A stretch of 64,000 nucleotides of DNA from Verrucomicrobiia bacterium (GTDB lineage: Bacteria > Verrucomicrobiota > Verrucomicrobiia > Limisphaerales > UBA1319), in NCBI GenBank assembly GCA_963664225.1, contig OY760937.1, positions 1,696,001-1,760,000 on the forward strand. The letters are read 5' to 3'. Both the position numbers and the translations under genes were made by a program. Numbering within the stretch: the first letter of the stretch is position 1; each line of letters starts with the position of its first letter. The notes beneath the pieces are model-generated. The model did not search any database. It was given only the letters and a program-made list of their open reading frames with translations, and had not been told where the DNA came from. Of the stretch, positions 42,039-44,117 are shown one piece after another.

Positions 42039-42226
42039 GAAACGGCTTTCATGGTTTCTGAGCTGTCGGAGTAAAGGGATTCGCCGGGCGCAGGACAAAA
42101 TTCAGGAAGCTGGTAAAAGCCTAAACCATACGAACCCAGCCAAGACGCCAATCGGCGTTGTGGGGCATATAATCCGGTGCGGTGGCATCCTCCAAACCGT
42201 CCAATCATTCAGAAAACGCGAAAAAG

Positions 42227-42264
42227 TTCTCCCTCTCCGCTCTGGGGAGAGGGCCGGGGTGAGG
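42227..42264 (+). repeat. REP-like palindrome (second family)
   Basis: ttctCCCTCTCCgctctggGGAGAGGGccggggtgagg hairpin. Confidence 0.65.
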
Positions 42265-42449
42265 TGGCTTTTCGATTCCCATCCACTCTAATTCTCCGCG
42301 TTCTCCGCGCCTCCGCGTGATGCCTTTTTTCGCGCCCCATTCCTTCGCCCGTCAACCCCGCGCGGCGGTATCCTCCAAACCGTCCAATAAACCCAGGGCT
42401 CGCAATACTCCTCCTTCTTGTATCTGATTTTCCATCTATTCTTGTTTTG

Positions 42450-42645
42450 TTTGAAAAGACGGAATAAATGGAACTGTCCTGCCGCCTGCAGGCGGCAGGA
42501 CAGTGGCGCGGACGAGCTCGTTTCCTTCTTGCATTGGTTTTTAACCAAATGCGCGAGGAGCCAGAGCCGTTCGTGCCTGTGTCCTAAACTCGAACCGTTG
42601 CTTGAGCGGCCCACCAAGGCCTGCTCGTATTTACAAGAATGAGCC
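42450..42645 (+). ncRNA. IS110 bridge RNA (predicted)
   Basis: 5' 14-bp hairpin; target loop with TTTCCTTCT (42521-42529) and AGGAG (42556-42560); donor loop with ACCGTTGCT (42594-42602) and TACAAG (42632-42637); guides match the element junctions; RNA ends approximate. Confidence 0.8.
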
Positions 42646-42653
42646 AGAACACT

Positions 42654-43580
42654 ATGACCACTATCTACGCTGGTTTGGATATTGCCAAGCTGAGTCTTGA
42701 TCTCCAACTGGCCGGTCGTTCCCACCATCTGCCCAATACCGCCGCCGGTCATCGCCAGCTCGTCAAACTCCTGGCGCAGCATCCCGGCGCTCACGTCATC
42801 TGTGAAGCCACCGGCGGCTACGAGCGTGAGGTGGCTGACGCCCTCCATCATGCCAGCATTCCTGTCAGCATCATCAATCCCGCCCGCGTCCGGCATTTCG
42901 CCCGCGCCCAGGGACAACGGGCCAAAACCGACCGTATAGATGCCGCCGTCCTCTCCGCCTATGGGCAGGCCTTCGCCCCCAAACCCACGCCCGCGCGTTC
43001 CGAGGTGGAGGAGCAGTTGACCGAACTGGTTCGCCGCCGCACTCAGATCCTTGATCTGCTTATTAGCCAGCGCCATCAGATCGAACGCCTCACGCTGCCC
43101 AAGTTGCGCCGCCAGGCCCAGAGCCTGCTGCGTCGATTGGAACGGGATCTGGAGCATATCGAGACCCAACTCAAAGCGCTGCGCCAGAAAACCACAGAAT
43201 TGGATGAGCGCGCAAAGAAACTCGAGGCTATTACTGGGGTGGGCGCGATTACCGCCTTGGGGGTTTTGGCTGAGCTGCCCGAGTTGGGCACGCTCAATCG
43301 GGGGCAGGCCGCCGCCTTGGCCGGACTGGCTCCACATCCTCGAGAAAGCGGCCAGTGGCAAGGCCGCCGCTCCATCGGTGGCGGAAGAGCCGCCGTTAGA
43401 CGTGCCCTCTACATGGCCGCCCTGGTGGCTGCGCGCTGCAATCGCCAACTCAAGGAGTTCTAGGAACGACTCCGATTGGCGGGCAAGCCCGCCAAAGTCG
43501 CGCTCACCGCCGTCATGCGCAAACTCATTGTCCTGATGAACCAAATCCTTAAAAACCCAGATTTTGCACTCTCAAATTAA
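42654..43580 (+). pseudogene. IS110 recombinase interrupted by one in-frame TAG (43461-43463)
   Basis: GLDIAK, CEATG, KTDRIDA (DEDD) and GLAP..RESG; frame resumes after the stop: ERLRLAGKPAKVALTAVMRKLIVLMN..*. Confidence 0.9.
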
Positions 43581-44117
43581 ATACCGTTGCTCCTGGGGGG
43601 AGTTCTCCATGGTTAAATCTTTTCCTCCTGGTTCTAATCTGTGTTTCTCTGAGCCATCTGTGGATTTCCCCTGCTTATCCCTATCCGTGCCATCCGTGAT
43701 ATCAGTGGTTAAAAATCCTGCTCATCCTGCTTATCCATGTTGATATTTCTTCACCCACCTCTTTCCATGTAACTTGTAATGAAAGACATCCCACTTTGGG
43801 TTCATGGGGAGGGCGGTCGTCCTTTCAGATCTGACTTTTGCCGGACCCTCAATCGCCGCCCGGCCATTCCCGAAACTCTTGCTGAATTCGTTTCGTATAT
43901 ACTCACATGCCCTTTATAAGGACTTTTTTCCCTTGCCGAAGAATTTTGTCCTGCGCCCGGATTCGCCCTCAGCTTGGATCGGTTCTGGACTTGCAGCAGA
44001 AAACCAGCACGCGGGAAAACCCTGTAAAACGCCACGAAAGCGCATGAGAAGGCCCATTCCAACAATGGCTTCAAATATTTTAATGAATCAATCAATGAAG
44101 AAGTGCGTCCGATCCAA

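Follow-up and report, generated by a model that had tools for sequence, protein, structure and literature searches.

The window considered here is a 64,000-nt stretch from the genome of a Verrucomicrobiia bacterium (contig OY760937.1, positions 1,696,001 to 1,760,000). Its + strand carries, at 42419-43591, an IS110-group insertion sequence (IS) of 1,173 bp with a predicted bridge RNA encoded in its left end. Unless stated otherwise, coordinates refer to the window and features lie on the + strand. A CT core dinucleotide is present at each junction, at 42417-42418 on the left and repeated at 43590-43591 on the right. The element starts with TGTAT (42419-42423) and ends with ACCGTTG (43583-43589), and the flanking DNA reads CCTCCTT on the left and CCTGG on the right. 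It is organised into a non-coding left end of 235 nt (42419-42653), whose first five nucleotides form the right donor half, a recombinase gene (42654-43580), and a right end of 9 nt plus the core (43581-43591, ATACCGTTG followed by CT), in which ACCGTTG forms the left donor half. A sub-terminal inverted pair of 4 bp is formed by ATAC (43581-43584) and GTAT (42420-42423). Because all the defining features of the IS110 group that can be read from sequence are present, the element is assigned to this group.

The host genome is a single 5.78-Mb contig (coordinates prefixed C1), and the copies of the element counted in it are five, designated A to E. All of them start with TGTATCTG and stop with ATACCGTTG, with CT on either side, and since termini and CT flanks are identical in all five, the boundaries of the element are fixed. 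The first-pass annotation of this DNA had reconstructed the donor as ACCGTTG-CT-TGTAT and named differing ends in other copies as a possible refutation; both ends were located as reconstructed, with CT at both junctions, and the five copies have identical ends. Copy A, the window copy, carries an in-frame TAG. Copy B is intact and 99% identical to it, and copy C (98% identity; C1:3172070-3173222) has an 18-bp in-frame deletion in the RuvC domain. Copies D and E share one sequence, are intact, and show 94% identity to the window copy. Copies A and B differ at 10 positions, of which three (42467, 43463, and 43550) are private to A and the remaining seven fall within 43200-43235. The D/E subfamily differs from copy B at 81 of 1171 positions (93% identical overall).

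Two local features of these copies were also observed. At 43200-43235, copy A has the D/E bases at seven synonymous positions in 36 bp, unlike B and C, leaving the protein unaffected; on sequence comparison, this segment resembles the product of a short gene conversion between the subfamilies. The deletion in copy C aligns to 42881-42898 and removes six residues, VRHFAR, just before the third and fourth catalytic Asp. Since the deleted stretch sits between short direct repeats, replication slippage is suggested.

The recombinase gene comprises 308 codons in the intact copies. Its coding start is most likely the ATG at 42654, because the D/E copies have AAG at 42639. The encoded protein contains the Pfam domains PF01548 (E 9.3e-20) and PF02371 (E 2.4e-18), and it scores 202.3 bits against the NCBIfam equivalog NF033542, "IS110 family RNA-guided transposase", for which the cut-off is 140. 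In a phmmer search of the PDB, the hits reduce to two distinct sequences, those of the ISCro4 recombinase (9t56, E 5.6e-39) and of the IS621 recombinase (8wt6, E 7.6e-39, and five further entries), and each alignment covers residues 5-301 of 308. A manual column count on the 8wt6 alignment places D9, E51, D93, D96, and S232-G233 opposite D11, E60, D102, D105, and S241-G242 of IS621, which are described as the composite active-site residues (PMC11208158). A homologue of the IS621 recombinase with a different target specificity had been proposed in the first-pass annotation; the full-length alignment supports the homology, and the target, described below, differs from that of IS621. A 418-codon open reading frame on the minus strand (42288-43544) was discarded as an artefact on the antisense strand of this G+C-rich gene.

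In the window copy, the TAG lies at 43461-43463, and the frame stays open for 39 further codons after it. The catalytic residues are all retained and the C-terminal 39 residues are missing. The same codon is TAC in all four other copies. A search of the genome for the IS110 family found 14 genes, namely five of the window family, five of a second family, and four of a third, and only the window copy has an internal stop. Reading of the TAG as a sense codon is ruled out by the TAC in the four other copies and by the lack of internal stops in the other 13 IS110 genes. Because the nonsense codon deletes the last 39 of 308 residues, the window copy is probably not autonomous and probably depends on copy B for protein. 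Copy B encodes the window protein without the stop, so the repaired recombinase that had been called for in a recombination assay is not needed.

The left end folds with a z score of -8.45, and none of 200 shuffled sequences is as stable. For a comparative analysis, nine left ends were aligned: those of copy A, copy D, one copy of the second family, and six elements from other Verrucomicrobia assemblies, whose recombinases are 60-81% identical to that of copy B. In the RNAalifold consensus, a 5' hairpin precedes two stem-loops, both of which contain a large internal loop. Standard pairing is found in 94.9% of the cells in the helices, compared with 34-44% when the partners are slid. Changes on both sides occur in 26 of the 59 pairs, compared with 11.1 ± 2.1 in shuffled alignments, and none of 500 shuffles reaches 26. 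Furthermore, G-U pairs are conserved on the + strand only, which places the structure on that strand.

Within this fold, the 5' stem-loop is the perfect 14-bp hairpin with a 4-nt loop at 42473-42504 (helix 3), in which 10 of 14 pairs are compensatory and 99.2% of cells are paired; such a hairpin ahead of the two loops had been noted in the first-pass annotation. It is followed by the target-binding loop module (42505-42577; helices 4-5, 10 of 23 pairs compensatory), with an outer stem formed by 42505-42519 and 42564-42577 and an inner stem-loop at 42531-42552. The inner stem pairs 42531-42539 (GCATTGGTT) with 42543-42552 (AACCAAATGC) and has one bulged A. The donor-binding loop module (42589-42643; helices 6-7, invariant) has an outer stem of 42589-42591 with 42641-42643 and an inner stem-loop at 42604-42626, whose stem pairs 42604-42611 (GAGCGGCC) with 42618-42626 (GGCCTGCTC) and has one bulged T. 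Upstream of these modules lies a small imperfect hairpin (42431-42472; helices 1-2), with 81-89% of cells paired and 6 of 11 pairs compensatory; the private A at 42467 of the window copy breaks one pair. This hairpin may be part of the RNA or part of the promoter region.

Regarding the donor loop, the left donor guide (42594-42602) reads ACCGTTG + CT, that is ACCGTTGCT, and is identical at 9 of 9 positions to the right end with its core (43583-43591). This 9-mer occurs three times in the window when both strands are counted (0.61 expected per 128 kb), two of the occurrences being the right end and the loop copy, and the chance that it falls inside the 235-nt left end is about 1e-3. The right donor guide, TACAAG (42632-42637), is complementary at 6 of 6 positions to CT + TGTA, the TGTA lying at 42419-42422. 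The guides of IS621 each include the core, the left ones pairing with the bottom strand and the right ones with the top strand (PMC11208160), and the guides of the window element follow the same strand logic. The left-end motifs listed in the first-pass annotation are all present, although four of the positions it implied for them need small shifts.

The donor loop shows some variation among relatives. At the core positions of the left donor guide (aligned to 42601-42602), CT is found in the window element, in D/E, and in six of the new covariance-model hits described below. Other relatives (among L021-L026, L028, L011, and the new hits) have AT, TT, CC, or AC there, their right ends still finishing in CT. 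In many relatives, pairing between the left donor guide and the core is thus impossible. The sequence TGCAAG is frequent as the right donor guide of relatives and forms a G-T wobble with TGTA.

Since the internal motifs are direct or inverted copies of the termini, like classical transposase binding sites, they might be sub-terminal DNA sites for the transposase and not RNA guides, with the structure being incidental; the guide role of this RNA is, moreover, read from sequence. This explanation is given very little credence. Against it stand the 26 of 59 pairs preserved by compensatory change, the conservation of G-U pairs on one strand only, and the first loop, which matches and covaries with the flanks and not with the ends. 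In addition, RNA guides are present in the solved structure of the homologous IS621 complex (PMC11208158).

The target loop contains the second pair of guides. The left target guide (42521-42529) reads TTTCCTT + CT, that is TTTCCTTCT, and matches 5 of 7 left-flank positions as well as the core. The right target guide lies at 42553-42560, and its AGGAG (42556-42560) is complementary to CT + CCT, so that three matching positions lie to the right of the core at the window site, contiguous with it. In D/E, all seven positions of the left guide are changed relative to copy B (TTTCCTT to CCATTCC). On the right, A42556 is G in D/E, where the right flank is CCC and not CCT. D/E also differs at 42554-42556, just 5' of GGAG; these three positions were picked post hoc. 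The flanks of D/E read TTCC-CT-CCC as opposed to CCTT-CT-CCT and are thereby shifted in the same direction as the guides. The A/B/C type is found in a repeat resembling repetitive extragenic palindromic (REP) elements, and the D/E type in unrelated sites.

The correspondence between guides and flanks extends beyond these copies. In the first set, comprising 16 insertions in nine guide classes, guide and flank match at 146 of 198 positions. On a per-class scale the observed value is 75.2, compared with a permuted mean of 48.6, and none of 20,000 permutations of the guide classes reaches it. The three positions to the right of the core match in all 15 insertions that have a right flank. A covariance model was then built from the nine left ends (178 positions, 48 pairs) and run at E ≤ 0.001 on 150 other genomes of the same order. 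It gives hits in 20 of the 150, with none in the one same-genus and the one same-family genome searched, and in the host genome it recovers the ten copies of the window and second families. The 16 hits that had not been used before have a nearly invariant ACCGTTG in the donor loop and highly diverse target guides. Ends were placed where CT|TGTAT (about 54 nt upstream of a hit) and ACCGTTG|CT (920-1170 nt downstream) occur. In this second set, agreement between each element's own guides and its flanks is seen at 40 of 54 positions on the left and 45 of 54 on the right, or 85 of the 108 determinable flank positions, against a permutation mean of 41.6; again, 0 of 20,000 permutations reach the observed value. 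As a separate observation, the orthologue L025 (record CAYPTV010000092.1) carries a deletion in its target loop, to which the right target guide and a portion of the outer stem have been lost. Its record bears the label Bifidobacteriaceae, although Verrucomicrobia account for all of its closest relatives, and a binning error may be involved.

The left end might instead be no more than a 5' untranslated leader through which translation of the recombinase mRNA, or its stability, is controlled, with no part in guiding. The position of the last stem (42641-42643), which stops 10 nt before the start codon at 42654, would suit such a leader, as would the failure to find a separate terminator or promoter. 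Loops that covary with flanks and ends are, however, not needed by a leader, and this explanation is considered highly improbable. A dual role of the left end as leader and guide RNA is possible.

Further agreement with IS621 is found at the handshake positions. PMC11208158 describes a rule for the bases that directly follow each core complement on its 3' side: once strands have been exchanged, they pair with positions 7 and 6 of the non-cognate DNA, and they must not pair with the cognate DNA. In the target loop (42561-42562), pairing of C42561 is possible with donor G7 but not with target T7, and a C follows AG in all nine sequences. The AA of the donor loop (42638-42639) is able to pair with T7 and T6 of the target, and not with G7 of the donor. 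The handshake positions of the window element fit the rule as given there. In D/E, positions 7 and 6 of the target are C, so that the donor-loop handshake positions do not pair.

The site occupied by the window element was identified from uninterrupted copies. The A and C insertions sit in a repeat whose uninterrupted form reads ...ATACTCCTCCTT-CT-CCTGGGGGAGAAGG..., and the insertion site is the 5' arm of a small hairpin (CCTTCTCC / GGAGAAGG). The left half of the interrupted repeat lies at 42397-42416, its last 7 nt, CCTCCTT, being the left target, and the right half lies at 43592-43612, its first bases, CCTGG, being the right target; the unoccupied repeats continue straight from one into the other. 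The unoccupied site is present elsewhere in the genome as 15 exact copies of the 22-mer, or 36 at up to three mismatches, as the first-pass annotation had anticipated in naming an empty target site. The repeat often occurs in short tandem clusters. Public sequencing runs gave a concordant picture: 23 are listed, all as contigs, and four (X1, X3, X4, X20) were compared with the window; the contigs of three runs that end at 42418 continue as the unoccupied form.

The REP-like family as a whole has at least 36 copies, occupying 42160-42416 and 43592-43830 in the window and occurring genome-wide, for example at C1:157683-158372. Its tandem unit is about 134 bp long with the hairpin CCTTCTCC-TGGG-GGAGAAGG, and the window element interrupts one unit. 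The depth of public contigs across these REP-like flanks varies several-fold. IS621 and other IS110 elements are also described as inserting into REP elements (PMC11208160).

Collectively, the observed sequence complementarities, the covariation of the RNA structure and of guides with flanks, the protein homology, and the catalytic residues make it very probable that 42419-43591 is a copy of an IS110-group element whose left-end bridge RNA guides the recombinase to the element ends and to the target. The mechanism would, by homology, follow that of IS621 (PMC11208160, PMC11208158, PMC13626964, and preprint 10.64898/2026.08.31.748434). The left end would be transcribed into a bridge RNA of approximately 170-190 nt, consisting of the 5' stem-loop, the target loop, and the donor loop. 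The donor loop would pair with the joined element ends, ACCGTTG-CT-TGTA, presumably in a circular intermediate. The target loop would pair with a pyrimidine-rich site of consensus xxTCCTT-CT-CCT in one arm of the REP-like hairpin. The RNA is expected to bind a DEDD/Ser recombinase tetramer, with strand exchange at the CT core via a phosphoserine intermediate, as solved for IS621.

Several observations weigh against this interpretation. The guide-target match is incomplete, with two mismatches in the seven left positions at the window site. Copy B matches 4 of 7 on the left, one mismatch adjoining the core; L024 and L026, from other genomes, match 3 of 7, and the new hit L042 matches 2 of 7. 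No flank could be determined for 4 of the 16 new hits, at least one being available for the other 12. Relative to the first-pass annotation, the target match is accordingly corrected to a partial one, with 5 of 7 on the left, the core, and three positions on the right; in the comparison of flanks of other copies that it had suggested, those of D/E shift along with their own guides. The donor-loop stems are invariant among the nine left ends and, because they show no variation, neither support nor contradict the fold. The donor loop is described as the conserved loop in PMC11208160, which fits these invariant stems, and the module has only three differences between the subfamilies. An Rfam scan of 42300-43700 at E up to 10 found no family at gathering score. 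The highest-scoring hit, to the small-SRP family, fell below threshold (26.8 versus 55.2 bits) and lies within the coding sequence on the opposite strand; in the left end only microRNA models were matched, on the hairpin. A genome search with a conserved donor-loop 11-mer gave 13 matches, of which ten are the known copies and three lie in unrelated coding-looking sequence, and revealed no further copies of the bridge RNA.

The remaining unfavourable observations concern expression and the state of the window copy. The single metatranscriptome run (share 0.06) has no contig on 42405-42892 and is uninformative on expression. Pieces from this RNA run on the coding sequence are at most 95-99% alike, seven of the eight being at 90-95%, and they derive from a relative because of this limited identity. 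The listed contig joints are repeat-to-repeat joins and not circle junctions. A promoter across the junction of right end and left end (RE-LE) is documented for IS621 (PMC11208160). No conserved sigma-70-type pair of hexamers was found across the computed RE-LE junctions of eight elements, and scanning the integrated copy for promoters gave no + strand prediction; promoter rules of this host may differ in both cases. Furthermore, the contigs of three public runs show C, and not G, at 43463, the last base of the TAG. Since repeat copies are collapsed in these contigs, they cannot decide whether the TAG is real.

The window copy itself shows signs of decay in its three private changes, namely the substitution at 42467 that breaks a pair of the upstream hairpin, the TAG, and the substitution at 43550. 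It is therefore conceivable that this copy is an inert fossil of a genuine family, with a truncated recombinase and a private left-end mutation, and is neither transcribed nor mobilised. The TAG as the sole internal stop among the 14 IS110 genes favours such a fate, and the 18-bp RuvC-domain deletion in copy C, of the same subfamily, indicates that decay is under way there. On the other hand, the ends, the core, the guides, and the stems from 42473 onward are identical to those of the intact copy B, an identical protein is available from that copy, and the IS621 bridge RNA functions when expressed in trans (PMC11208160). Fossil status is accordingly regarded as a real but unlikely prospect. 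With its guides and ends intact, and with the identical protein encoded in full length by copy B, the window copy could still be mobilised in trans.

Beyond the window family, the genome contains two further sets of IS110 genes. The second IS110-group family has five near-identical copies of 1,197 bp (L006-L015), with ends TGTATGTTTG...ACACCGTTG-CT, for example at C1 3487118-3488314; the copy nearest to the window lies about 1.8 kb past its end (C1:1761757-1762772). Its donor halves are those of the window element. Its target guides are TTCCAAT-CT and, as the complement of the right guide, CT-GCCGTA, and its insertion sites read TTCCAA(C)/TTCCAG(T)-CT-GCCGT(A/T). This family occupies another repeat family (CGTAGCGCAG..TTCCA..-CT-GCCGT.TCGC...). 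The third IS110-family set has four copies (C1 968338-969477, 2964981-2966120, 3179621-3180760, and 4663911-4665050), with hits of about 1,140 nt that each score 176.7 bits to NF033542.

Among the closest known systems is IS621 of Escherichia coli (PDB 8wt6-8wt9). IS621 and the window element share the recombinase domain pair and catalytic residues in a full-length alignment, a long left end, a short right end and a CT core, and the order of 5' stem-loop, target loop, and donor loop. They also share the strand logic of the four guides, the handshake fit, and insertion into a repeated palindromic element. The IS621 bridge RNA architecture recognised in the first-pass annotation is in this respect upheld by part order, strand logic, stem and guide-flank covariation, and handshake positions. 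The right donor half is the same as far as can be judged from the bases named in PMC11208158. For the IS621 donor, the first-pass annotation had given ACAGTAT-CT-TGTAT; this agrees with the donor bases dA6, dT7, dT10, and dT12 in Hiraizumi et al. (PMC11208158), but the string itself is not found in the accessible text of PMC11208160. The elements differ in the left donor half, the target, and the host phylum. They also differ in protein length, with 326 residues implied for IS621 by the Tnp domain range in PMC11208158 compared with 308 for the window element. In contrast to IS621, the window element is known from sequence alone and has no recognisable sigma-70 promoter at its junction. A protein search of a plasmid collection gave no record labelled IS621 among the matches listed, which were the best 30 of 2,626.

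The ISCro4 recombinase (PDB 9t56) is the best PDB sequence match to the window recombinase, over residues 5-301. The relationship is, however, distant, and the two were compared by protein alone. Published work on ISCro4 reportedly concerns engineered use. ISPpu9 and ISPpu10 of Pseudomonas putida are likewise multi-copy IS110 elements in repeats, the former in REP sequences and the latter in identical copies of one conserved intergenic sequence, according to PMC12288879 and 10.64898/2026.03.19.712850. They differ in host, repeat family, and guides, and are likened to the window element by description only. Elements of the IS1111 group share the recombinase superfamily and the principle of RNA guidance (PMC11208160). 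In contrast to the window element, their bridge or seek RNA is located in a long right end and their sub-terminal inverted repeats are 7-17 bp long. The window element has its RNA in the left end, a right end of 11 nt including the core, and an inverted repeat of 4 bp. For the IS110 group, sub-terminal inverted repeats of 2-3 bp flanking the donor are given in the same source (PMC11208160).

The kind of system is already known, because published surveys predicted thousands of such RNAs. Durrant et al. (PMC11208160) report predicted bridge RNAs in the thousands, and in 85.7% of the IS110 elements of ISfinder. The degree of novelty is consequently lower than the first-pass annotation had claimed. 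A full-text literature search combining 'bridge RNA' with 'Verrucomicrobi' found no paper, and the supplementary tables of surveys, which lie outside that search, may list the element. The understanding of how bridge systems work is unchanged by the window element. What it adds is a compact (308-residue), naturally multi-copy putative bridge-recombinase system from Verrucomicrobia. With the second family representing a third specificity, three natural guide-target pairs and the intact gene of copy B are usable for testing of orthologues.

The two subfamilies constitute a natural experiment: almost identical elements coexist in one genome, sharing their donor loop and differing entirely in target guides, with insertion sites that differ correspondingly. 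Outside the target loop, the left ends of A/B/C and D/E, the most closely related pair analysed, diverge by 3%, yet their guides are the most dissimilar, with 10 of 13 positions differing; for orthologues diverged by 15-22%, the guide difference is only 3-7 of 13 positions. From this comparison, A/B/C and D/E might record a natural re-targeting by replacement of the whole guide block at once, a proposal that is put forward tentatively and is held to be rather improbable. The change of the guide block could reflect a dedicated or favoured route, such as exchange of target loops between elements or selection for non-overlapping targets. Alternatively, slow point mutation, with selection, may account for it. 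If the proposal of replacement as a unit is true, A/B/C and D/E would represent re-targeting captured within one genome, in which more than selection on point mutations may be involved.

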